Below, in pieces: positions 5,249 to 38,859 of a stretch of 64,000 bases of DNA. The DNA lies in contig CAVVHS010000007.1 of assembly GCA_963748215.1 (NCBI GenBank), forward strand, positions 160,001 to 224,000, written 5' to 3'. This DNA is from an uncultured Gammaproteobacteria bacterium (GTDB taxonomy: Bacteria > Pseudomonadota > Gammaproteobacteria > UBA9214). Numbering within the stretch: position 1 is the first letter of the stretch; each line of letters starts with the position of its first letter. A model generated the notes under the pieces. It was not told the origin of the DNA. It searched no databases and worked only from the letters and a program-made list of their open reading frames with translations. The position numbers and the translations under genes are program-made.

Positions 5249-7870
5249 TTATCTGACCAGACTCAGGGAGGGTCTGGTAAACAACAGCTGCTCGATTTCC
5301 GCGGCAGGTCGGGGCGGACTGAATAGATAACCCTGCATTTCATCGCAGCCGTTATCGCACAGAAAGGCGCGCTGTTCATTTGTCTCCACACCCTCGGCAA
5401 TGACAGTCAGATTGAGGGTATGACCGAGGGCGAGGATGGCCTTGATGATGGCCGCATCGTTCCTGTCATGCGGGATATCCTGCACAAATGAACGGTCGAT
5501 TTTCAGCTTGTTCAGCGGGAACCGCTTCAGGTAGCTCATCGATGAGTAGCCGGTGCCGAAGTCATCGATTGCCAGGCGCACACCCAGCTTGCGCAGCTCG
5601 CCCAGTTTCTCGATGGTTGCGACAGCGTTGTGCATGATGCAGCTCTCGGTTATTTCCAGCTCCAGGCAATGCGGCTCGAGCCCGGTATCGGCCAGGATCT
5701 TGCTGACGGTCCGGATCAGGCGGTCATTGATCTGGTGGCCAGAAAGATTTATTGCCATTCGCAACGGGGTTTCCGGCGCATCCTGCCATCTCCTGGCCTG
5801 CGTGCAGGCGGCATGCATGACCCATGCCCCAAGCGACTCGATCAGGCCGGCATCTTCGGCAACCGGGATGAACAGGTCGGGCGGCACCATGCCATGCTGT
5901 GGATGCCGCCAGCGCAGCAGTGCCTCCAGACCCACGATACGACCGGTCTCCAGCGATACCTGTGGCTGATAGTGCAGCAGGAATTCATTTCTCTCCAGTG
6001 CATGGCGCAGGTCAGTCTCCATTGTCAGTCGCTTGTTGGCGGCTGTCGTCATGTCGACGAGGTAGAACCGGTACTTGTTGCCGCCATCAGTCTTGGCGTC
6101 GAACATGGCAACATCTGCATGTTTCATCAGCGAGGTCACGTCGTGCCCGTCCTGGGGATACATGCTGATTCCGATGCTGGCACCCAGGAAGACTTCCCGC
6201 CCGGAAACATGGAATGGCCTGGCCAGAGTGGCCAGCAGCCTTTGCGCAACCTCGGGCACAGAATCCGGGTCGCCCAGGTCCTCGAGGATAATCGTGAATT
6301 CGTCGCCACCCAGGCGTGCGACGGTATCGCCCTCGCGTGCGGTGTGAAGCAGGCGCTGCGCGACCTGCTTCAGCAAGTCATCACCTGCCGGATGGCCGAG
6401 CGAGTCGTTGATTTTCTTGAAGCCGTCCAGGTCCAGGAACAGCAGCGCCAGCTGCCGTTGATTGCGCCGGTGATGCTGCAGGGCATGGGTGAGCCGGTCG
6501 CTGAACAGCAGCCGGTTGGGCAGGTCTGTGAGCGAGTCATGATGCGCCATGTGGTCCAGCTTTTTCCGTGTGGCGTGACGTTCGCTGATGTCCAGAACAA
6601 TGGCGACAAATGCCTGTTCGGCACCCGGCGCGGAAAGCTGCAGATTCACCTCCACGGGGTAACAGGTACCGTCCCTGCGACTGTGTACCGTCTCGAACTG
6701 CACGCGCTGGCTGGATCCGTCCAGCAAGGGCTCGAGCGTTTCCAGGAACGCCTCGCGGGTCACTTCCGGCTTGATGTCCACGGGTGTCAGGTGGTGAAGT
6801 TCCTCCATGGTGTAACCGAGGTTGTTACGCGCACCCTGGTTAACATTCATGAACCTGAGTGAATCCTTGCTGAAGATGTAGATCTCGTTTAGCGATTGTT
6901 CGAGAATTTCGCCCAGGCTGTTCGCCTTTTCCTGGAGATGCCGGCCGAGCAATTGCCGGGCTTGCCGGTGTTCGTTGAAGATCGCTGTCAACAGCAGGGT
7001 GGTAATGGATATGGTGCCCACGAATGACTGCAGCAAGAGCAGCGATTCGTTCATGTCGGCGCGCACGAACGGGCCGGCACCGCCGATGGTGCCCCACAAG
7101 GCACTGGTCGCGACGAGGGCGATACAGGCGGTGGCACCATGCTTGCCAAAGCGCAGTGCGGCCCAGGTGAGCGGGATAAGGGGCAGGAATGCCAGCGGGT
7201 AGTTATTGACCGCGAGCGAAGACTGGCGTCCGAACACGACATGCGCAATCAGCAGTGTGCCGGTTGACAGGCATGCGGCTTCAAGCAGGCGTACAGCGGA
7301 CCAGTCCGGTTGCGGCAGGGTCTTCCAGGTCAGCAGCAGGGGTGTAAGCAGCAGGACACCGCCGGCATCGCCCAGCCACCAGGTGATCCAGATCGCCGCG
7401 AAATCCGGCCTGCTGGCGGGTGCTGTTTCCAGCAGCGTAAGGGTGCCTACCGTCGCACTGAGCATGGTCGCCAGCAGGCCGCCGGCAACGACAAGGACAA
7501 TCAGACCGCGGGTGCTGTCCAGCGGATTCCCGGGTCTGGCCAGTTTCTGCACCAGCAGGGCGCCCGAGACGGCCGCGAGCGTATTGCCCGTCGCGATACC
7601 CAGTGACCCGATCACTGACAGATCGGCCATGACATTGACGGTAAACGCGCCAAGTGTGATGAAAGGCCACAGGCGCAGGCCGAACATCAGCAACGCTGCC
7701 AGGGCGATACCGCTGGGTGGCCATACGGCGGTGACGTTGTTGTGCACGACGGCCAGCTGCAGTCCCAGCTCGGCTGACAACACGTAGAGTAATGTCACGC
7801 CCAGGCCGGCCAGAATCAGTCGCGTCGTTTGCTGGTTGTCGTGCTGCGCGACATACGGGTTGCTGTCCAT
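5249..7870 (-). CDS. MASE1-PAS-GGDEF-EAL diguanylate cyclase/phosphodiesterase
   Basis: VWPPSGIALA and WWLGD (MASE1), PAS, HDSLTDLPNR, RLGGDEF, EALLRW, DDFGTGYSS. Confidence 0.95.
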   Translation of the reverse strand: MDSNPYVAQHDNQQTTRLILAGLGVTLLYVLSAELGLQLAVVHNNVTAVWPPSGIALAALLMFGLRLWPFITLGAFTVNVMADLSVIGSLGIATGNTLAAVSGALLVQKLARPGNPLDSTRGLIVLVVAGGLLATMLSATVGTLTLLETAPASRPDFAAIWITWWLGDAGGVLLLTPLLLTWKTLPQPDWSAVRLLEAACLSTGTLLIAHVVFGRQSSLAVNNYPLAFLPLIPLTWAALRFGKHGATACIALVATSALWGTIGGAGPFVRADMNESLLLLQSFVGTISITTLLLTAIFNEHRQARQLLGRHLQEKANSLGEILEQSLNEIYIFSKDSLRFMNVNQGARNNLGYTMEELHHLTPVDIKPEVTREAFLETLEPLLDGSSQRVQFETVHSRRDGTCYPVEVNLQLSAPGAEQAFVAIVLDISERHATRKKLDHMAHHDSLTDLPNRLLFSDRLTHALQHHRRNQRQLALLFLDLDGFKKINDSLGHPAGDDLLKQVAQRLLHTAREGDTVARLGGDEFTIILEDLGDPDSVPEVAQRLLATLARPFHVSGREVFLGASIGISMYPQDGHDVTSLMKHADVAMFDAKTDGGNKYRFYLVDMTTAANKRLTMETDLRHALERNEFLLHYQPQVSLETGRIVGLEALLRWRHPQHGMVPPDLFIPVAEDAGLIESLGAWVMHAACTQARRWQDAPETPLRMAINLSGHQINDRLIRTVSKILADTGLEPHCLELEITESCIMHNAVATIEKLGELRKLGVRLAIDDFGTGYSSMSYLKRFPLNKLKIDRSFVQDIPHDRNDAAIIKAILALGHTLNLTVIAEGVETNEQRAFLCDNGCDEMQGYLFSPPRPAAEIEQLLFTRPSLSLVR

Positions 7871-24479: not shown

Positions 24480-24569
24480 GGCGTGGTGTGGGTCGTTACG
24501 GACGATGCCGGCAGTATAGCGCCGGCACGGGTCGATGCGTAGGCGCGGATCGTCTCAGCGTGTTTTTCG

Positions 24570-24842
24570 TAGGGTGTGAGACGTGAGACGTGAAAATAAG
24601 AATGGCCACGGAAGCATACGGAAGGACACGAAAAAATAGATGATTGTAGCCGCACAGGATGCGGTGAGCCTGCGAACCGCATCGATCGGTTTTCAACGTC
24701 GCTGAATGCCGGGCAGGGGTGGACGGCGCCCGTGATTTTTTATCCGGGATCGGCCTTGAGAAGCGCCCCTACAGAAATAGATACACCGGTTGATGTAGGG
24801 TGCGTTTTACGCACCGGGGATAGTGCACAGCGTGTACCCTAC
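24570..24842. repeat. REP/composite repeat cluster
   Basis: GAGACGT tandem, GGCCACGGAAGCATACGGAAGGACACG, GGATGCGGTGAGCCTGCGAACCGCATC, GTAGGGTGCGTTTTACGCACC. Confidence 0.8.
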
Positions 24843-24943
24843 GGCCGTGGTCCGTGAACAATGCGTTCGCGGCTCCGCATAAAAACAAACCCCCGCCTGC
24901 GGGCGAGGGTCCGGCATGGAAACCCGGCGCCCGGCGCCAGGCT

Positions 24944-25225
24944 TCAACGCATCTGATACTTGCGGGAGCTGCGCACCAGCGAGCGCACCTTGGACATGTG
25001 ACTGCCCGTGCTGATGATCACGTGGCGCTCGACGTCGTCATAGACGCGCTGGGCATCGCAGTTGGCCGGATTGCCCGAGTTCTCGCATATATCCTTGACG
25101 AAGGCCTGCACACAGACCGGCAGCTGATCGTCGGTGCAGCCGAGGCAGCCATCGAAGGCGTGGTCACAGGCCAGCGCGCCGCCCGCAAACAGGATCATTG
25201 CCAGTATCAGCGCATGTCTGCGCAT
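24944..25225 (-). CDS. Small secreted Cys-rich hypothetical protein
   Basis: Signal peptide, 6 Cys in the mature part, downstream hairpin at ~24890-24910. Confidence 0.65.
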   Translation of the reverse strand: MRRHALILAMILFAGGALACDHAFDGCLGCTDDQLPVCVQAFVKDICENSGNPANCDAQRVYDDVERHVIISTGSHMSKVRSLVRSSRKYQMR

Positions 25226-25469
25226 GGTAAAACCTAACTCCATGATTTATCTCCAAAATCACGATAGTGTCAACAAAACAGTGCCACAGTATACGCCTCG
25301 TTTACCGCAAGCGTAGTACAAATCAACGGCAGGTTTGGGGGAATGTCGAGGGCCAGGGGGTGAAAAAATGTGAATAGTTTCTTGTCAGACAGACGGTTGG
25401 CATGACCTCTTTCGAAAGCCTTCACTTTCCCCATATAAATTGCGCGGATAATTCGAGCGACGCACAGGC

Positions 25470-25700
25470 AGGAGTCGAGACCGTTTTTACGGGCATAGCC
25501 TCGGTCTCACCTTCTCCCCCTGTGCTCCACGACACCTGGACATCCCCGGCAACTGCTCCATGCGTTGTTCTACCTCCTACATCCATGTAGTCGTGCGTCC
25601 CTGCAGTCGTGTCCGTCGTCGCGGGAGACATCGACGATGTGCAGGGATGAAAAAGTGTCGCGGGAGGGCAGGATGCCCGTAGCGACCGCCGGTAGCGACC
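25470..25700. repeat. Dispersed repeat element (GAGACCGTTTTTACGGGCATAGCC / GGTCTCACCTTCTCC family)
   Basis: Same segments at 41554-41593 and, inverted, at 58800-58860. Confidence 0.7.
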
Positions 25701-26021
25701 GATGTGCAGGGAGAAGTCAGACTGCGCAGAAACCGGCGTCAGCGCATAAATAGTCTGAAAATAACAGCGGAAATGGTTCCCGGATCCGCTATACGTGGCG
25801 ACAGCACTCGACTGACGACAGAGGGCGGGGGGTCGCATTAAAGTCTGCTGCCCGGTCTGTCGATTGTGTCACAGGTAAGCTCAGGCCGGGAAACATGTCT
25901 GCCAGCGCTTGAGGCCATCGCAATATCGCGCGTGCTGGCGACAACTGCCAGCGAACGTGCCGGTGTGCCGCCATGACCGGCTATCAACAGCCAGACAAAA
26001 ATCTTCAGGATTGGCGGTGCC

Positions 26022-27083
26022 ATGCAAGCGAGTGTTGTGTCGATCACCAGGCTGAAGGCCGGCCTTGCCGGCCGGCGAGACTGGCTGGCAACCATCCTGC
26101 GTGTACCTCTCGGGGGGGTGCTGGCATGCGCACTGTTGACGGGTTGTACCGTGGTCAACACGGCGGTGCCTGAATCCCGGCCCGGGTCGTCGCCTGAGCT
26201 GCAGGTAGAAAAATCTCCGGTCTACAAGCCGCCCCCGGTGCCGAAATTCCTGCTGCCCGTTGCGATCCTGCTGAGCGATGATGTACCCGCGTATAGCCGC
26301 ATTGCCGATGAACTGGTGACGCGGCTTGCCCGCAGCCACGAGATCATTTCCCTGCATGGCGATCCTGCCGCCGGTGACCAGGCCATCAGCAAGCTGAATG
26401 ATTCCGGTCACGGTTATATTGTTGCCATCGGACCGTTGGCGGCACAAATCGCGCGCCGGCTCACCGGCCGGCAGATCGTCTTCTGCCAGGTCTTCAATTA
26501 TCAGGAATATGGATTGACTGCAGACCACATTCGCGGCGTGAGTATCCTGCCGCCTGCAGAGCTGCAATTCAGCACCCTGAAATATCTCGACACCGGGCTG
26601 AAACAGGTCGGCGTGATCAGCGGTCCGGGGCATGAAGCACTGATCGCTCAGGCGCGCAGTGCCGCACGGCGTCACGGGATCGAGCTCGTTCATCGCGTGG
26701 CGCACTCCGATAAGGAAATGCTCTATACCTTCAAACGCCTGTCACCTGAAATCCAGGGTCTGTGGCTTTTGCCGGATGATCGTATTCTCAGCCGCCGGGT
26801 ATTGCGCGATGTCATGGCATACAGCAACAAACACGGCAAGCAGGTTATGGTTTTCCACCCGGAATTGCTGCGACTCGGTGGACTGCTCAGCGTGAGCGGG
26901 ATTGATGCCGACATCGCGGACCAGGTGATTGTTGCGCTGCGTGCCTCATCTGCCGGTACTGCTCCACCGGCAGCCGGCCTGCTGCCACTGACGCGGATAC
27001 GTATCGAGATCAACGCACAGGGCTTGCAAAAGTTGCACACTCCGGCTGAAACACGACGCCAGGCGGTGACCGATGTCCCGTAA
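26022..27083 (+). CDS. ABC-type substrate-binding-like lipoprotein
   Basis: LLTGC lipobox; IVAIG, GVIS and GLWLLPD motifs typical of the ABC_sub_bind family; start is uncertain. Confidence 0.75.
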   Translation: MQASVVSITRLKAGLAGRRDWLATILRVPLGGVLACALLTGCTVVNTAVPESRPGSSPELQVEKSPVYKPPPVPKFLLPVAILLSDDVPAYSRIADELVTRLARSHEIISLHGDPAAGDQAISKLNDSGHGYIVAIGPLAAQIARRLTGRQIVFCQVFNYQEYGLTADHIRGVSILPPAELQFSTLKYLDTGLKQVGVISGPGHEALIAQARSAARRHGIELVHRVAHSDKEMLYTFKRLSPEIQGLWLLPDDRILSRRVLRDVMAYSNKHGKQVMVFHPELLRLGGLLSVSGIDADIADQVIVALRASSAGTAPPAAGLLPLTRIRIEINAQGLQKLHTPAETRRQAVTDVP

Positions 27084-29697
27084 GCGGCTCCCGGCAGCCG
27101 GGGCATCGAATCCGCACTCGCTGCTGTCCCGGCTGCGGGCGGTTATCCCGCGCATACGCAACGTCGGTACCGGGCGCTCGCGCAGCATGATCAACGACAT
27201 CCTCCTGCTGCAGCTGGTGTTTGCGACTTGCCTGGGATTGCTGGCCATCGGTGGCTTGTGGGCAATTTCAAAGACCGTCATCGGGGATAATCTGCAAAAG
27301 TGGGCGCAGGCCTGGATTACGGAACTGGAGGAGCTCGGTGCGCCACTGTATCAATCCGGGGATGAAGAGCGTTTTCTCCGGGTCGAAAACTATGTTGCGA
27401 ACTTCCCGGAAATTGCCCTGGTCCGCTATTACACGCCGGCAGGGGAGATCCTGTTCACGCTGGACCGCAGGGTGGCGCCTGACAGGTCCGTGCTTGCCCC
27501 GCTCAGCGCCCGGCAGCTGGACAAGCTGCGCACCGCCACCGCACCGGAAAAGCCCTATCTGCTCGACACCTCGACAGCGAGTCAGTCGATGTTCCGGGCA
27601 AGTTCACCGGTCTGGATCGAGTCAATGAGGCCGGCAGACCTGTTGAACCTGGATCTCGACTCAGGGCCGGCAGACCAGGTCGAGTTGATAGGGTACCTGG
27701 AAGTCGTCCTGGATTTCAGCCACTACCAGAACCGTCTCATTGCCGGGATCAAGATCGGCAGCGTGGCGCTCACGCTTGCGCTGCTGCTGGTGGCTATGGT
27801 CGGGCGGTATTTCCTGAAGAGTGCGCTGAAGCCGCTCGCCGATCTCGCGACCCCGCTGGCCCGGCTTGCCGCCGGCGAGACCGAGGTCAGCGTGAAGGCT
27901 ACCGGGCACAAGGAGATCATGGCCATCAGCAACGCGCTGCAGACGACGATTCGTGCGCTGAACGAGCGCGACAGGATGCTGCGCCGGCTTGCACACTACG
28001 ATCCGTTGACGGGATTGCCGAACCGGCGCTTCTTCACCCAGCGACTGGAGGATGAAATCGCCTCGATCGTACAAAGCGCCGGGAGCAGCGCATTGCTGTT
28101 CGTGGACCTTGACCAGTTCAAGTACGTCAACGATACGCTGGGGCATGCCGCCGGTGACCGGGTGCTCGTTCAGGCCGCCGGCTGCCTGCAGGGCAGACTG
28201 CGTGGAAAAGACGAGATCGCGCGCTTTGGCGGTGACGAGTTCACGATAATCCTCAAGGATATCACCAGGGAAGATACAACCCGTCTGGTGGAGGATCTGC
28301 TCAGGTTCATGCAGGACATTCACTTTGTCGAAAACGGCCAGTCAATCAACGTACCGTGCAGCATCGGGGTGACAATGATCAACACCGGGCGATATACGCC
28401 TGACGAGCTGCTTTCCCAGGCAGATATGGCGTGCCACGATGCGAAGGCGCGTGGACGCAACCGCTGTTGTTTCTACGAGATATCCGGTCTGGAAAAGCAA
28501 CGGATGAAAGAGGATATCGGCTGGTCGCACAGAATAAAACAGGCACTGAATGAAAACGGTTTCCTGCTGCAATACCAGCCGATCATCGATTTGGGCAGTG
28601 GTCGCCCGGTCATGCACGAGGTCCTGCTGCGGATGCGCGACAGGAATAATAAACTGATACCGCCTGCCGCTTTCATGCCGGCCGCCAATCGGTTCGGCCT
28701 GATGGCGAAAATCGATCACCTGGTGATTCGCTGTGCCTTGCAGGCACTGGCACGTTTCAGGGAAAACGGTCATCACGTCATCTTCACCCTGAACCTTTCC
28801 GGTTATGCGTTTGAGGATCCGGCGCTGGTCACGTTCGTGCGCGAGCACCTGGAAAAGAACCGGCTGGACCCGTCTGCGGTGATCCTGGAAATTACCGAAC
28901 AGGTCGCGGTAAGGCATCTGGAAAAGGCGCGCGGGTTGATTCAGGAGCTCACGGCAATCGGCTGCCGGTTTGCCCTTGACGATTTCGGCGCCGGCTTCAG
29001 CTCTTTCAATTACCTGAAATACCTGCCTGTTGACTTCATCAAGATAGACGGCGGCTTCGTCAGGAACATGGCCAGCGATCCTGTTGACCAGGCCATGGTG
29101 AAATCGATCATCCAGGTTGCCAATGCGGTGGGCAAACAGACCATTGCCGAATATGTTCAGGATGAAGAAACACTGCAGATGCTGTGTCAACTGGGTGTCG
29201 ACTATGCCCAGGGATTCCATATCGGCAAGCCGGCCGATACCCTGCTCGCCGAGCCGTTTAAACTACCTCACAAAGGTCCGGAGCGGATCGAGTGGCAGGA
29301 CTTTCAGGAGGAATTCATTCAACTTTGCGTCCAGTGGCACCTGCGTGACGAGCCGAGTTACCGGCGGCTCGAAGAGATGATGCTGGAGCGGGGTGTGCCC
29401 GTGCGGCATACAACCATTCATGGCTGGGTGCAGCGTTACAGCCCGGAGTCGGACAATCCCGTGCAAGCCCCGGCGCATCCTGTCAACCGTGATTATCACG
29501 TCGAGGAGACATCTGTCTATGTCAAGGACCAGCGCAAGTATCTGTACCGCGCCATCAGCGCCAACGGCGATACACTGGACTTCATACTTTTTGATGCCCC
29601 CGACAGCTGGGCTGCCAGAGAGTTTTTCCTCAAGCACCTGCAGACAGGTGTAGTCACCGGCAGCGTGTTGAAAGAAACCGGGCAGCTGGCGAAATAA
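27073..29697 (+). CDS. Membrane HAMP-GGDEF-EAL protein with a C-terminal IS6-transposase-derived domain
   Basis: 2 TM helices, HAMP, YDPLTGLPNR, RFGGDEF, EVLLRM, DDFGAGFSS; residues ~740-860 read SYRRLEEMMLERGVPVRHTTIHGWVQRY...YLYRAI...GDTLDF. Confidence 0.9.
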   Translation: MSRKRLPAAGASNPHSLLSRLRAVIPRIRNVGTGRSRSMINDILLLQLVFATCLGLLAIGGLWAISKTVIGDNLQKWAQAWITELEELGAPLYQSGDEERFLRVENYVANFPEIALVRYYTPAGEILFTLDRRVAPDRSVLAPLSARQLDKLRTATAPEKPYLLDTSTASQSMFRASSPVWIESMRPADLLNLDLDSGPADQVELIGYLEVVLDFSHYQNRLIAGIKIGSVALTLALLLVAMVGRYFLKSALKPLADLATPLARLAAGETEVSVKATGHKEIMAISNALQTTIRALNERDRMLRRLAHYDPLTGLPNRRFFTQRLEDEIASIVQSAGSSALLFVDLDQFKYVNDTLGHAAGDRVLVQAAGCLQGRLRGKDEIARFGGDEFTIILKDITREDTTRLVEDLLRFMQDIHFVENGQSINVPCSIGVTMINTGRYTPDELLSQADMACHDAKARGRNRCCFYEISGLEKQRMKEDIGWSHRIKQALNENGFLLQYQPIIDLGSGRPVMHEVLLRMRDRNNKLIPPAAFMPAANRFGLMAKIDHLVIRCALQALARFRENGHHVIFTLNLSGYAFEDPALVTFVREHLEKNRLDPSAVILEITEQVAVRHLEKARGLIQELTAIGCRFALDDFGAGFSSFNYLKYLPVDFIKIDGGFVRNMASDPVDQAMVKSIIQVANAVGKQTIAEYVQDEETLQMLCQLGVDYAQGFHIGKPADTLLAEPFKLPHKGPERIEWQDFQEEFIQLCVQWHLRDEPSYRRLEEMMLERGVPVRHTTIHGWVQRYSPESDNPVQAPAHPVNRDYHVEETSVYVKDQRKYLYRAISANGDTLDFILFDAPDSWAAREFFLKHLQTGVVTGSVLKETGQLAK

Positions 29698-29821
29698 ATT
29701 CGACCAGCGCATTCGCGCATGAGATGCGCTCCTACGCCCGATCGATGCTCCTGCAGGAGCGGATCCCATCCGCGATCATTTCAAACACCGCATCGCGCAT
29801 GAGATGCGCTCCTACGCCTGA

Positions 29822-29931
29822 GGAATCTCTGATTAATTCTCTCTTCGTCATCCCGGCGCATGCCGGTATCCGGATTTATCAATGACCTGGATGCCGGCCT
29901 TCGCCGGTATGACGAATTAATCAGAGATTCC
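29822..29931. mobile_element. MITE-like element: 18-bp perfect TIR enclosing a CGTCAT-type palindromic pair
   Basis: GGAATCTCTGATTAATTC (29822-29839) and GAATTAATCAGAGATTCC (29914-29931); related end at 31223-31268. Confidence 0.65.
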
Positions 29932-30002
29932 CTGAATGATGCACCTGCAGGAGCGGACATGGTCCGCGAACGATGCATGTTATCGCGACTGGTGCCTGCG
30001 GG

Positions 30003-30938
30003 TTATTCCAGCGGCCGGCCGGGCGGCGCCAGTACATGCCCGGCATTGAGCACCACCAGTGTATAGCGCTGGCCGTTCACCTTCGCGGCCAGCCACGGCC
30101 GCACGGTATCGACCAGTTCCTGCCGTGCCACCAGCGTCGGTAATGCCAGCCGCAGGTAGTCGCCTTCGCCGTTGAGGATGACCTGTTCCTCCCCGTCCGG
30201 CAGGTGCTGGATCACGAAGTGGTTCCAGTCCATGCGAATGCCGCCGGCCACCTCGCGCGTGATGGCCGCGGCGAGCGTACCCAGTTCGGCCAGTGCGCGC
30301 CCGCAGGCAGCACGCTTGGCACCGAGGTTTTCCATGCTGAAGAACTGGAACTCCAGCCCGTCACCGCTATCGCACACCGGTCCCGCCTGCTGGCTGAAAC
30401 TCCATTGCGCCTCGGCGCTGCTGACCTCCGGCAGGTACGCCGGGTCGGCGGTTGCCACCGGTTCGTCCAGCAGGCCCTCGCACCGGTTCAGCTCGCAGAA
30501 ACGCGCGATCACGCGCTGCTCGAAGGCGGACTGTTCCTGCATGCGCGGGCTGCTCGCCACCACCGGACGGCCCGCCACGATCAGGTACAGGCTGCCCTCG
30601 GGGCCGGTGCTGAGTTCGACCGGCGTGTCGGGCAGGATACTTTGCGCCAGCAGGGTGTAATCGACCGCCAGCTGTTCGACCGCGGCGGCCCAGCGCCGCA
30701 GCCCGCCCTGCTGTGTGCGGTCGCGCTTGTCGCGGCGCGCGCGTTGCGCCTCGTCGGAGTAGGCCGCGGCCAGCTCCTCGATGGTGGCGCGTGCCAGGTC
30801 GGCGCGCAGCGGCGCGGGCTGCCCGGCAAGGTTCGCCGCCAGGCCGTTCAGCCGGTAGATCGGCGTGACTGACTGTGCCTGCGCCGTTCCCGCCGGCAGG
30901 CTGCAGAGCATCGCGAGTATGAACAGGTATCGATACAC
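30003..30938 (-). CDS. Hypothetical secreted protein
   Basis: Signal peptide MYRYLFILAMLCSLPAGTAQA, 311 aa. Confidence 0.75.
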   Translation of the reverse strand: MYRYLFILAMLCSLPAGTAQAQSVTPIYRLNGLAANLAGQPAPLRADLARATIEELAAAYSDEAQRARRDKRDRTQQGGLRRWAAAVEQLAVDYTLLAQSILPDTPVELSTGPEGSLYLIVAGRPVVASSPRMQEQSAFEQRVIARFCELNRCEGLLDEPVATADPAYLPEVSSAEAQWSFSQQAGPVCDSGDGLEFQFFSMENLGAKRAACGRALAELGTLAAAITREVAGGIRMDWNHFVIQHLPDGEEQVILNGEGDYLRLALPTLVARQELVDTVRPWLAAKVNGQRYTLVVLNAGHVLAPPGRPLE

Positions 30939-35388: not shown

Positions 35389-38300
35389 GTGACACCCAAA
35401 ACCTTTTCGCGACAATTCGGCTGGCTCATCCTGCTGACCTGGACGGTACCGCCGGTGGTCGGTTTGTCCTTTCTGGTCTATATCGGGATGTTCACGCTCG
35501 AACAGATCTGGCGGATGCTCACCACACCCCTCGAACCGGCCTTCATCCTGGTCTGGCTCGGATTCGCCCTCTGGTATTTCAGGAATTACGCCCGGCCCAT
35601 CGTCGCTTCGCTCGACATTCCCGGGAATGAGTTGCCGGCTGTCGTCAACCAGCGCATGCAATGGTTCCCGCTGCATTATTTCGGCCTGTTCATGACGTAC
35701 CTGCTGATGGCGCCGAGTTCGGTGATCTGGAGCGCACAGATTTATACCGCTTTCACGGCAACACCTGTCGACTGGTTTCGCATTCACCTGGTGGCATTGA
35801 TCGTCTCCATCATCGTCGGCCTGCCGATCTTTTTCATGATTCTCGACCTGTTCGGCAAGGCCGTGTCAGGCCGGTGGCTGACCCGGCCACATGTGAAGAT
35901 CACGACGAAGGTATTCCTGATCGGGGCCCTGATACCGCTGCTGATCGATACCATGATCGTGCAGTACTACTGGACCCGAACCGGCTTCTTCACCACAGAA
36001 ACCTTCTTTGTCTGGCTTACCCTGGAAGTACTGGCAATACTGGGCAGCTTGATTTTCGTGAAGAGCTTCAGCCAGTCGCTGCAACCGCTGGCCTGTGTAC
36101 TGGAGAAATCGCCTGCCAGCAAACTGAATGGCCACACCACTCTGTCCCCGTGTTCCACCGATGAACTGGGGGTGCTGGCGACCGGTTACCGGAACCTGCT
36201 GGATAACCTGCAGCTGCACGGAGATATCCTGCGGCTCGGCAACCGCCTGCTGCAGACCAGCGAAGGCGAGGCTGACATCGGTGAGGTGATGAATGAAATC
36301 ATCCGGCTGTGTCGCGACAACGTCGGTGGTGACACGGTTTTTCTCATCCTGCATGACCCGGCCAGCGATGAGCTGGTGGGTGTGGCGCAGACCGGATCCC
36401 CGTACAAGCCCGACGGTCACTTCCGCCTGTCGCTGGATGAAACCTCGACCTCCACCTGGGTGTTCAGGCACGGGGAGATGGCCGTCATGAAAGATGCCTT
36501 GCATGACCCGCGTGCCAGCACGCGACTGCAGGCGCGTTTCTCCACACGGTCCGCACTCGCTGTACCACTGCGGGTCGATGGCAGGACTATCGGCGTGCTG
36601 ATGTCGGCAACGGTAAACGAACCGACAGACTACAGCGACACTGACATATACCTGATGCAAACCCTGGCTGACGAGGCCGCGCTCGCCGTTCACACGCACA
36701 TGCTGCAACGGGAAAAGGCCCGTTCGGAAGCAGCTACGCGCAAACGGGAAGAGCAGATTCACCTGCTGATGGACTATTCAGCCGAGGCGGTGTTCGCCGT
36801 GGACCTCGAGGGTAACTGCACCTTTGCCAATCCCGCCTGTTACCGAATGCTGGGCTACACGGGCGAGGCGGATCTGCTCGGACGCAATATGCACGAACTT
36901 ATTCATTACACACGGTCGGACGGGAGTCCCTATCCGCAGGAGGAATGCCGGGTCCAGCAGGCGGTGAAGCTGGGAGAATCCGGTCATGACGATACCGAGG
37001 TCCACTGGCGCGCGGACGGCAGCTGTTTCCCGGTGGAGTGGTGGTCGCATCCGGTCTACAAGCACGGCGAGCTCATCGGCAGCGTGGTCAACTTTGTTGA
37101 TATTACCCAGCGCAAACAGGCCGAGGCCGAGGTGCAGCGACTGGGTGAATACAATACGCTGTTACTGGAATCGACCGGGGACGGCATCTTCGGCGTGGAT
37201 TCCGAGCTGCGTTGCACGTTTGCCAACCGTGCTGCCTGCGATATGCTGGGCTTTCCGGCCGCCGGGCTGATCGGCCAGGATATGCACGCCCTGGTACAGC
37301 ACAGTCACGAGGATGGCCGGCCACGCGCCCGTGAGCAAAGCCCGATCTATCGGGCGATCCGGGAGGACAAGTACCTGCTGTCGGAATCCGATGTCCTGTG
37401 GCATCGCGGCGAGGACCCGTTTCCGGTGCAGTACTCCTGCAACACCCTGCGCAGGGGCGAAGCGATAACCGGCGCTGTGGTCGTGTTTCGCAACATTGCC
37501 GAGGCGCGCGCCATGTCGCAGAAGATGGAGTATCTGGCTACCCACGATCCGCTCACCGGCCTGGTCAATCGCCGCGAGTTCGAGCGTCGCCTCGGTTCCG
37601 CCATGGAGGCCATGTCAGCGCGGGGCCGGGATTGCGCCCTGTGCTACCTCGACCTGGACCAGTTCAAGGTAGTCAACGATACCTGCGGTCACGTGGCAGG
37701 CGATGAATTGTTGCGCCAGCTGGCTACGATCCTGCACGGCCGGCTCAGAAAGCAGGACACCCTGGCGCGGCTCGGCGGCGATGAATTCGGGGTGCTGTTT
37801 CTGGACTGCAGCATGCAACGGGCTGTGAACATAGCCCACGAGATGCTGGGCGAAATCCAGGATTTCCGTTTCGTCTGGGAAGACAAGAACTTTGCGGTGG
37901 GCGCCAGCATCGGCATGGTGGCGCTCACGGAGGATATTGCCGATACCGCGGAAGCGCTCAGTGCCGCCGATGCGGCCTGCTATTTAGCCAAGGATGCAGG
38001 GCGCAATCGCGTGCATATCTACGAGCAGGACGACAAGGAGCTGACGCAGCGCAAGGGCGAGATGCAGTGGGTATCCCGGATTCGGGATGCCCTGGATCGC
38101 CGGCAGTTCGTCCTCGTCGGGCAACTCATCAAACCTGTTCGTGCAGACAGCGATGCAGGGGGTACCGGACTCGAGGTGCTGGTGCGCATGCTGGATGATA
38201 CGGGGAACATAATACTGCCCGGCGCATTCCTGCCGGCCGCCGAGCGCTACAATCTGATAGTCGCACTCGATCGCTGGGTCGTGGAGGAAACACTGCAACA

Positions 38301-38859
38301 CCTGGGCCGGCACGCTGATCTCCTTGGCAGGCTGGAATTCTGCACCATCAATCTCTCGGGCAGTTCCTTTGGGGATGACGATTTCCTCGCATTCATGGTG
38401 GATCAGCTCGACCGTACCCGGGTGCCGGCCGGCAAGCTCTGTTTCGAGATCACCGAGACCGCGGCGGTTGCCAATCTCAGCAAGGCGATCCACTTCATCC
38501 GCACCCTGAAGGAATACGGCTGCCGTTTTGCCCTGGACGATTTCGGCAGCGGCATGTCTTCCTTCACCTACCTCAAGAACCTGCCGGTCGATTTTCTCAA
38601 GATCGATGGCAACTTCGTCCGTGACATGGCGCGCGATCCCATCGATCGTGCCATGGTCACCGCAATCCACCAGGTGGGCAGTGTGATGGGTATCCGCACC
38701 ATTGCCGAGTTCGTGGAAAACGAAGAGATCCTCGCTGCCTTGCGGGAGATCGGTGTGGACTACGCCCAGGGCTTCGGCCAGTCCCGGCCAGAGCCGCTTG
38801 AAGACATCCTGCGTTCGAACGCCGAAATCGGTGCCGCAAGTACTTCCCACGCCGGGTAA
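35389..38859 (+). CDS. Multi-TM GAF-PAS-PAS-GGDEF-EAL signalling protein
   Basis: About 6 TM helices, GAF, two PAS, HDPLTGLVNR, RLGGDEF, EVLVRM, DDFGSGMSS. Confidence 0.93.
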   Translation: MTPKTFSRQFGWLILLTWTVPPVVGLSFLVYIGMFTLEQIWRMLTTPLEPAFILVWLGFALWYFRNYARPIVASLDIPGNELPAVVNQRMQWFPLHYFGLFMTYLLMAPSSVIWSAQIYTAFTATPVDWFRIHLVALIVSIIVGLPIFFMILDLFGKAVSGRWLTRPHVKITTKVFLIGALIPLLIDTMIVQYYWTRTGFFTTETFFVWLTLEVLAILGSLIFVKSFSQSLQPLACVLEKSPASKLNGHTTLSPCSTDELGVLATGYRNLLDNLQLHGDILRLGNRLLQTSEGEADIGEVMNEIIRLCRDNVGGDTVFLILHDPASDELVGVAQTGSPYKPDGHFRLSLDETSTSTWVFRHGEMAVMKDALHDPRASTRLQARFSTRSALAVPLRVDGRTIGVLMSATVNEPTDYSDTDIYLMQTLADEAALAVHTHMLQREKARSEAATRKREEQIHLLMDYSAEAVFAVDLEGNCTFANPACYRMLGYTGEADLLGRNMHELIHYTRSDGSPYPQEECRVQQAVKLGESGHDDTEVHWRADGSCFPVEWWSHPVYKHGELIGSVVNFVDITQRKQAEAEVQRLGEYNTLLLESTGDGIFGVDSELRCTFANRAACDMLGFPAAGLIGQDMHALVQHSHEDGRPRAREQSPIYRAIREDKYLLSESDVLWHRGEDPFPVQYSCNTLRRGEAITGAVVVFRNIAEARAMSQKMEYLATHDPLTGLVNRREFERRLGSAMEAMSARGRDCALCYLDLDQFKVVNDTCGHVAGDELLRQLATILHGRLRKQDTLARLGGDEFGVLFLDCSMQRAVNIAHEMLGEIQDFRFVWEDKNFAVGASIGMVALTEDIADTAEALSAADAACYLAKDAGRNRVHIYEQDDKELTQRKGEMQWVSRIRDALDRRQFVLVGQLIKPVRADSDAGGTGLEVLVRMLDDTGNIILPGAFLPAAERYNLIVALDRWVVEETLQHLGRHADLLGRLEFCTINLSGSSFGDDDFLAFMVDQLDRTRVPAGKLCFEITETAAVANLSKAIHFIRTLKEYGCRFALDDFGSGMSSFTYLKNLPVDFLKIDGNFVRDMARDPIDRAMVTAIHQVGSVMGIRTIAEFVENEEILAALREIGVDYAQGFGQSRPEPLEDILRSNAEIGAASTSHAG

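Follow-up and report, generated by a model that had tools for sequence, protein, structure and literature searches.

An IS6-family transposase fragment as the C-terminal tail of a GGDEF-EAL protein in an uncultured gammaproteobacterium

The window analysed here is a stretch of 64,000 nucleotides (nt) from an uncultured bacterium of the Gammaproteobacteria (lineage UBA9214; GenBank assembly GCA_963748215.1, contig CAVVHS010000007.1, positions 160,001 to 224,000 of the forward strand). It carries a gene for a protein in which the GGDEF and EAL domains of cyclic di-GMP (c-di-GMP) turnover are followed, in the same reading frame, by a tail related to the transposases of the insertion sequence (IS) family IS6. 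The C-terminal 135 residues are very probably an exapted front end of an IS6-family transposase. In the simplest account, a GGDEF-EAL gene acquired this fragment at its 3' end a single time; the fragment then lost catalysis and mobility, and purifying selection has preserved it in three genera. A preliminary description, made from the letters of the window, had proposed that a membrane c-di-GMP enzyme retains an old transposase DNA-binding domain as an output or localisation module. That the domain was retained under selection is well supported by the distribution of the fusion, by substitution rates and by contigs from other sequencing runs; the output or localisation role stays a proposal.

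Homology of the tail to IS6 transposases

The open reading frame (ORF) of the fusion gene contains no internal stop codon (ORF analysis of the window). When the whole protein was compared with the NCBIfam model transpos_IS6 (NF033587), residues 740-858 were aligned with model positions 2-120 of 202 (E 8.2e-35, 120.3 bits). The tail alone scored 125.2 bits (NCBI cut-off 125), the whole protein scored below the cut-off, and a full-length match above it was not obtained, the coverage ending at model position 120. The Pfam profile DDE_Tnp_IS240 (PF13610) recognised residues 807-858 with 35.2 bits (cut-off 27; profile positions 3-54 of 139). The IS6 domain that had been placed in frame directly behind the EAL domain, at 29281-29697 (residues 737-874 and the stop codon), was thus found with both models. 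Identity to present-day IS6 transposases was 36-46% over 119-171 amino acids (aa) in tblastn searches and 30-43% in the multiple alignment. The earlier characterisation of the domain as stop-free stands, while "strongly diverged" holds in a relative sense only.

The tail residues were compared in an alignment of 17 tails with 45 IS6 transposases, and residue roles were taken from a study of Tnp26, the transposase of IS26 (PMC8477213), in which D78, D138 and E173 are the catalytic residues. Where the first catalytic Asp would stand, the window's protein has Glu811 (codon gag, 29503-29505), as the preliminary description had read it; the residue is Asp in 45/45 IS6 transposases and in 0/17 tails. 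The IS6 match stops past the helix that follows strand 3, and the region that would carry the catalytic Glu is absent. The last 16 residues are a degenerate, disordered and neutrally evolving relic of the segment that would hold the second catalytic Asp. All three residues of the DDE triad are thus missing, the first by replacement in 17/17 tails and the other two, as had been claimed, by decay or loss of their segments. The conserved Asp of the RAVD motif is also lost in the tails.

The N-terminal part of the transposase was retained much better. A three-helix helix-turn-helix (HTH) domain near the beginning of the transposase part was indicated by the hidden Markov model alignment, by the helices predicted with AlphaFold2 and by superposition on the HTH of the ISCth4 transposase (root mean square deviation 1.0 over 41 aa, Z 3.9). 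Of the Tnp26 residues, F9, G39 and W50 have their equivalents in 17/17 tails, R29 in 14/17 and R49 in 12/17. The HTH of the tails contains the invariant block MMxERGVPVRxTTIxxW, and the blocks KYLYRA, at residues 822-827 of the window's protein, and DFxLxD are invariant in the strand-helix part. Other positions were newly fixed in the tails: W741, Q745 and C752, the MML ahead of ERG, the VPVR ahead of HTTI and the QRK ahead of YLYRA. Helix 3 starts with an invariant Arg in the tails and mostly with Asp in the IS6 proteins, and its mean charge is +3.1 in the tails vs +1.3 in IS6.

The structure predicted for the tail alone (mean predicted local distance difference test score, pLDDT, 81.6; predicted template modelling score, pTM, 0.71) consists of three helices followed by three strands and a helix (beta-beta-beta-alpha), with the last 13 residues at low confidence (Table 1). 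A model of EAL plus tail had the same mean pLDDT (81.6) and a pTM of 0.59. The low-confidence linker and the pTM of this second model suggest that the tail is flexibly tethered and not docked against EAL. In the PDB, a sequence search with the tail gave only chance matches (E at least 0.2, toluene monooxygenase), and in the ESM Atlas only clusters of IS6 fragments were found.

Table 1. Features of the fusion gene and of the gene preceding it (coordinates in the window; dN/dS, ratio of non-synonymous to synonymous substitution rates; TM, transmembrane)
Feature	Coordinates	Strand	Evidence and remarks
Upstream gene, 353 aa, lipoprotein-like ABC_sub_bind	26022..27083	+	Pfam PF04392, E 3.6e-7
Fusion gene, 874 codons + stop	27073..29697	+	ORF call, Pfam, NCBIfam; sensor/TM region - HAMP (weak) - GGDEF - EAL - linker - IS6-derived tail
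GGDEF domain, residues 307-464	27991..28464	+	Pfam, E 1e-43
EAL domain, residues 487-720	28531..29232	+	Pfam, E 7e-70
Linker, residues 721-739	29233..29289	+	dN/dS 0.51-2.8; pLDDT <50 at 718-735; resembles the C-terminus of tail-less orthologues
N-terminal arm and three-helix HTH, residues 740-792 (helices 742-759, 763-772, 779-788)	29290..29448	+	NF033587; AlphaFold2 pLDDT 90-97; dN/dS 0.13-0.41
Inter-domain loop, residues 793-805	29449..29487	+	Acidic vs basic in IS6 transposases; dN/dS mostly near-neutral
Start of the DDE (RNase H-like) core, with its first three beta strands and first helix, residues 806-858	29488..29646	+	PF13610; strands 808-817, 820-829, 834-840; helix 845-857; dN/dS 0.14-0.52
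Last 16 codons + stop	29647..29697	+	pLDDT <50 at 862-874; dN/dS 0.72-4.3

Distribution, origin and selection

The fusion is not confined to the assembly of the window. Of the order's 54 genomes, six, from three of six genera, carry it. Sediments are among the habitats in which the gene occurs. Three other species of the same genus carry it (G037, G018 and G003, with tails 88%, 57% and 53-58% identical to the window's; the G003 gene is split across two contig ends), and so do two more genera of the family (G060 and G064). The window's genome (G000), G037 and G018 share the position of the stop codon; in G003, G060 and G064 it comes one residue sooner. In a collection of 5.8 billion proteins, 15 clusters of 661-925 aa matched the tail, and more were found when the sensor region was used as query. 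The C-termini of 38 relatives were inspected. Twenty-three were tailed (23 protein clusters at 90% identity) and 15 tail-less, the latter comprising two partial sequences (P0169, P0185), one short form within the tailed clade (P0170), eight closer orthologues and four distant proteins.

The junction was also recovered in contigs assembled from public runs of two studies. One contig of 4089 nt, possibly from the source sample, spans 28900-29740 with one difference and no gap; the contigs of the second study cover 29082-29256 and 29227-29650 with no differences. No insertion or deletion was seen in these contigs between 28900 and 29700, so that neither a stop codon nor a frameshift separates the EAL domain from the tail.

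Where did the tail come from? A profile of four tails, run against 1.84 billion representative proteins, retrieved IS6 transposases and members of the fusion family. The sole long protein with a C-terminal match beside GGDEF-EAL was P0051 (885 aa), a divergent member of the family; P0018 and P0021 (104 aa) were short fragments. In a tree of the approximately 120 shared residues, 21 tails formed one clade apart from the 45 IS6 transposases (support 100/100) on a long stem. When the enzyme core was used for tree building and the tail was excluded, 22 tailed proteins and P0170 formed a clade (clade A, support 96/98), and the tail-less orthologues formed a basal grade beside the outgroup. Because of this basal position, the capture of the transposase fragment was probably a single event. 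The tail-less proteins terminate 21-47 residues past the EAL domain, with a KPAxxLCxxPFPL stretch akin to the linker of tailed proteins, which reads KPADTLLAEPFKLP in the window. This resemblance suggests that the EAL protein probably ended, before the capture, with what is now the linker (up to about residue 740), and that the transposase part begins near W741.

One tailed protein, P0176 (L035:1982-4744, from a metagenome-assembled genome of Thiogranum sp.), was not placed in clade A and fell into a polytomy instead. Its tail is very divergent, with 37% identity to that of the window and 44% to an IS6 transposase, is 16 residues shorter and has Asn at the first catalytic position; the spacing at the junction is the same as in clade A (PF.L. 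+ 6 residues + [IL].W). The starred branches of the tree force only two changes, so the tree is compatible with one capture, before P0176 and clade A diverged. P0176 may be either a deep relative or a second, independent capture.

Two observations made with these sequences should be mentioned. The core of the G064 gene, from another genus, is 86% identical to that of G003, which is only 72% identical to that of G000 from its own genus; the conflict between gene tree and genus labels may reflect either horizontal transfer or problems of binning or taxonomy. Many representatives of 300-470 aa (P0026-P0048) carry an IS6 transposase of about 230 aa behind N-terminal extensions of variable length. 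These extensions are probably gene calls that overran upstream through open GC-rich sequence, and not true fusions.

The fused fragment shows no sign of being mobile: it is a single copy and has the same upstream context in the six genomes. Each of the four tail-bearing genomes of the genus (G000, G037, G018, G003) contained one IS6 match (E<=1e-3), and in the window's own genome this match is the fusion itself. The IS26-type terminal repeat (pattern GGNNCTGTTGCAAA, derived from the terminal inverted repeat given in PMC8477213) was searched with up to three mismatches; 47 matches were obtained in the window vs 54.5 expected, and none at 29200-29300, around the junction, in agreement with the earlier statement that no IS6 terminal repeat can be seen. 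A repeat search of 29100-30100 found only repeats resembling repetitive extragenic palindromic (REP) sequences. By tblastn no remains of the rest of the transposase were detected 3' of the stop codon in the four genomes of the genus, and no relic of a tail in the tail-less loci L032-L034, L036 and L040. An IS6-like tblastn match in L041 (E 5e-5) was dismissed as chance, its frame differing from that of the real gene.

Selection was estimated by the pairwise Nei-Gojobori method in 14 comparisons among the six genomes. The dN/dS ratio was 0.07-0.20 for the enzyme core and 0.20-0.48 for the whole tail, hence not near 1. Fisher tests for a lower proportion of non-synonymous than of synonymous changes in the whole tail gave p values of 7e-4 to 7e-12 in 13 of the 14 pairs and 0.01 for G064-G003. 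By segment, the ratios were low in the arm and HTH (740-792) and in the strands and helix (806-858; dS often saturated), and mostly near or above 1 in the linker (estimated over 723-739) and the last 16 residues (859-874), with the ranges listed in Table 1. For the inner loop (793-805) the ratio was 0.62-2.0 in most pairs and 0.14, 0.26, 0.36 and 0.41 in four. The near-neutral segments coincide with those that AlphaFold predicts as disordered or of low confidence, which provides an internal control against a bias of the method. Estimates made in Biopython by NG86, YN00 and maximum likelihood agreed in direction. In most comparisons the tail is thus under purifying selection that is weaker than on the enzyme core and confined to the folded parts. 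When neutral evolution was simulated from the window's tail, 0.4 substitutions per site left 2.8% of the sequences free of stops, and 0.8 left 1.0%.

Possible function of the tail and alternatives

The explanation that we favour, with modest confidence, joins the exaptation described above with a role of the tail as a target-binding output domain. Taken alone, this output role would merit not quite an even chance. An IS6 fragment would have been captured at the 3' end of a GGDEF-EAL gene, with its catalytic residues and mobility lost afterwards. Carried on a disordered linker of about 20 residues, it could then bind a target, most likely DNA via the HTH, in the manner of the trigger enzyme PdeL. 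The input might come from the N-terminal sensor region together with a presumably co-transcribed periplasmic ABC_sub_bind lipoprotein. DNA appears the likeliest target because no part of the tail varies less than the turn and the recognition helix, because helix 3 gained positive charge, and because PdeL offers a precedent. Two modes of action can be envisaged: the enzyme could be held at a DNA site, making c-di-GMP turnover local, or DNA binding could be gated by the c-di-GMP state of the neighbouring EAL domain. The narrower version, in which the exapted HTH is a sequence-specific DNA binder and the enzyme either a chromosome-tethered source or sink of c-di-GMP or a c-di-GMP-gated membrane-bound transcription factor, is possible but rather doubtful.

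Several results weigh against parts of this explanation. The equivalent of Tnp26 F4 is Ile in 13/17 tails (Ile739 in the window) vs Phe in 34/45 IS6 transposases, so the tails do not preserve the two aromatics (F4 and F9), spaced by four, that precede the HTH, and the R49 equivalent in the window's own copy is Gly784. In PMC8477213, the substitutions F4A, F9A, R49A and W50A each abolish binding of Tnp26 to the terminal repeat, and the M1-P56 fragment alone binds weakly. The mean net charge of the first approximately 120 residues is +9.3 in IS6 transposases and -1.3 in the tails, and that of the inter-domain loop changed from basic (+3.1) to acidic (-2.1). The fold searches scored poorly: Foldseek against the PDB gave E values of 0.02-0.2 in the top rows, with retroviral integrases and the ISCth4 transposase as the best matches, and a wide fold search of the HTH with VIA gave only matches with Z <5, although the domains that it returned bind DNA (DeoR with operator, Z 4.5), which speaks for the DNA-binding role. 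The tail can also be lost, as indicated by P0170, which lies within the tailed clade and terminates 18 residues past the EAL domain. The G018 gene (L021) has a 1-nt insertion near codon 147 relative to G000 and G037, which splits it into ORFs of about 150 and 742 aa and leaves the tail intact; this may be either a true pseudogene or an assembly error. The weakest case for selection is the close pair G064-G003, in which the dN/dS of the folded tail was 0.44-0.86, depending on the method, over 90 codons.

To this list belongs a non-coding block at 25841-25865, about 160-180 nt 5' of the ABC_sub_bind gene, which is kept in 6/6 tailed genomes. It has one exact match in the genome and three with two mismatches. 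A diverged form was found at the same place upstream of tail-less orthologues; the block is therefore no evidence for the tail's target and was set aside as a candidate for it. It is probably the promoter or operator of the operon.

The main rival, which we consider unlikely, is that the tail serves protein-protein interaction or oligomerisation. The truncated beta-beta-beta-alpha unit would expose a surface normally covered by the rest of the RNase H-like fold, which might pair with a second copy, and so influence the dimer state of EAL or GGDEF, or dock a partner. The strand-helix fragment, which has no obvious part in DNA binding, is as constrained as the HTH and contains the invariant KYLYRA and DFxLxD blocks, and the basic charge has gone outside helix 3, together with the R49 and F4 equivalents in the window's copy. 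The authors of PMC8477213 propose a possible multimerisation role for F4 and F9, and in PMC5052742 the EAL activity of PdeL is linked to dimerisation. Against an interaction module stands the location of the most invariant stretch, which is the HTH turn and recognition helix (17/17), as expected for a conserved nucleic-acid target; in addition, the model of EAL plus tail has no confident fixed contact between the domains. A third reading makes the tail a defence against IS6 elements: a dead transposase front end could bind IS6 ends or poison an incoming transposase, conferring immunity to the IS family, much as the truncated inhibitors of other IS, named below, act on theirs. The part that recognises the ends was kept while catalysis has gone, and three members of the genus without the fusion carry IS6 frames of 240-243 aa, whereas the four tail-bearing genomes have no IS6 match other than the fusion. 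This reading is nevertheless quite improbable, since it does not explain the covalent fusion to a membrane c-di-GMP enzyme kept across genera, and since conserved positions of the recognition region have changed (helix 3 begins with Arg in place of Asp, and the basic loop is lost). Moreover, the absence of an IS from metagenome-assembled drafts, in which repeats often fail to assemble, is weak evidence, and the genomes are few and their correlation is not independent of phylogeny.

That the tail is a neutral leftover of an in-frame IS6 insertion, or an assembly chimera, can be effectively excluded. IS insertions are common near gene ends, the 3' part of the transposase is gone, REP-like repeats lie past the stop codon and the G018 copy is frameshifted, all of which a leftover would fit. 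It would not fit the common junction and stop position in six genomes and 23 clusters, a dN/dS well below 1 in the folded parts only, or the 1-3% of tails expected to stay stop-free per lineage under neutrality at the observed divergence; and a chimera is at variance with the contigs of two studies, which run across the junction with no indel and at most one difference.

Compared with the IS6/IS26 transposases, the tail has a homologous N-terminal arm, a homologous three-helix HTH and the first beta-beta-beta-alpha of the core. It differs from them in covering a little more than half of the family model, in lacking the first Asp, the Glu segment and terminal repeats, in being single-copy, syntenic and fused behind an EAL domain, and in forming a separate clade on a long branch with conserved positions of its own. 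According to PMC5052742, PdeL (YahA) of E. coli is an HTH protein with an active EAL domain, and its binding to its own promoter is modulated by c-di-GMP. The proposed functional model is based on the likeness to this protein, an HTH and an apparently active EAL domain in one polypeptide, and the intact EAL motifs and tethered HTH are compatible, as far as sequence and models go, with a trigger phosphodiesterase of the PdeL/PdeR type. The HTH of PdeL is of the LuxR type, N-terminal and cytoplasmic, whereas that of the fusion protein is transposase-derived, C-terminal, accompanied by GGDEF and apparently membrane-anchored.

Truncated transposase derivatives that regulate or inhibit an IS are familiar from IS1 InsA, IS911 OrfA and the Tn5 inhibitor, which are encoded by the element and control its own transposition. 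These, too, are non-catalytic parts of transposases, and they retain a binding function; the tail differs in being a fixed domain of a host gene, in genomes with no detectable IS6 copy. Eukaryotes offer well-documented cases of domesticated transposase DNA-binding domains, and the known bacterial cases of transposase domestication are mostly nucleases and recombinases. The fusion is not a categorically new system; it is a variant that combines known kinds, namely multidomain c-di-GMP enzymes, HTH-EAL trigger enzymes and transposase exaptation. No published description of it was found in open-access papers and preprints on DDE_Tnp_IS240 with EAL, on domesticated transposases with GGDEF or on prokaryotic transposase domestication, and "domesticat" has no occurrence in an IS6 review (PMC7986276). 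It represents an uncommon bacterial case of a mobile-element protein reused for a host function, and the evidence is unusually clean, with a fixed junction, a probably single origin, a tail-less outgroup state, lost catalysis and domain-resolved purifying selection. If the tail binds DNA, it would be, as far as the open-access literature shows, the first bacterial DDE-transposase domain recruited into second-messenger signalling. For the c-di-GMP field the fusion offers a natural test of local signalling, as an enzyme with its own candidate address label that can be removed or swapped in a heterologous host, where its target can also be looked for.

The enzyme and the genomic neighbourhood

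The GGDEF and EAL domains both retain their catalytic motifs, as far as can be judged from sequence. Alignment columns were scored against the usual motif definitions of the two domains. The GGDEF motif is intact in 15/15 aligned family members, the RxxD site ahead of it in 14/15 (P0004 has CEHD), and the EAL motif positions EVL, N, ExxE, DDFG, K, E and Q are retained in 15/15. The enzyme is thus a c-di-GMP turnover protein at the level of sequence and probably bifunctional. A weak HAMP domain was detected by Pfam at residues 249-297 (E 0.037), and the protein appears to be membrane-anchored, judging by eye from its hydrophobic segments. Used as query, the fusion protein gave 27 matches in its own genome, which is therefore rich in c-di-GMP enzymes. 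Two of the further GGDEF-EAL genes lie in the window, one at 35389-38859 (+), coding for a GAF-PAS-GGDEF-EAL protein of 1156 aa, and one at 5306-6571 (-).

The last 11 nt of the ABC_sub_bind gene are also the first of the fusion gene, and the two form a probable operon. The ABC_sub_bind gene precedes the fusion gene in 6/6 genomes examined and was found upstream in four of five further loci, tail-less except for L035 (L032, L033, L035 and L036; not detected in L040). The downstream neighbours differ between clades. The approximately 1.5 kb at 24480-26021 contains no ORF with a Pfam match; an ORF of 99 aa with a signal-peptide-like start lies there at 24944-25243 (-). Convergent to the fusion gene is an ORF of 311 aa (30003-30938, -) with a signal-peptide-like start and no Pfam family, which is conserved downstream in G037 and not in G018 or G003. 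Between it and the fusion gene, just 3' of the stop codon, REP-like palindromic and direct repeats occupy 29713-29969; they include a 29-nt unit that occurs twice (29713, 29793) and, at 29822/29914, a perfect inverted repeat of 18 nt. In the metagenome runs the contig depth rose from about 11 to several hundred over 29713-29969, indicating that the unit is highly repeated in those communities.

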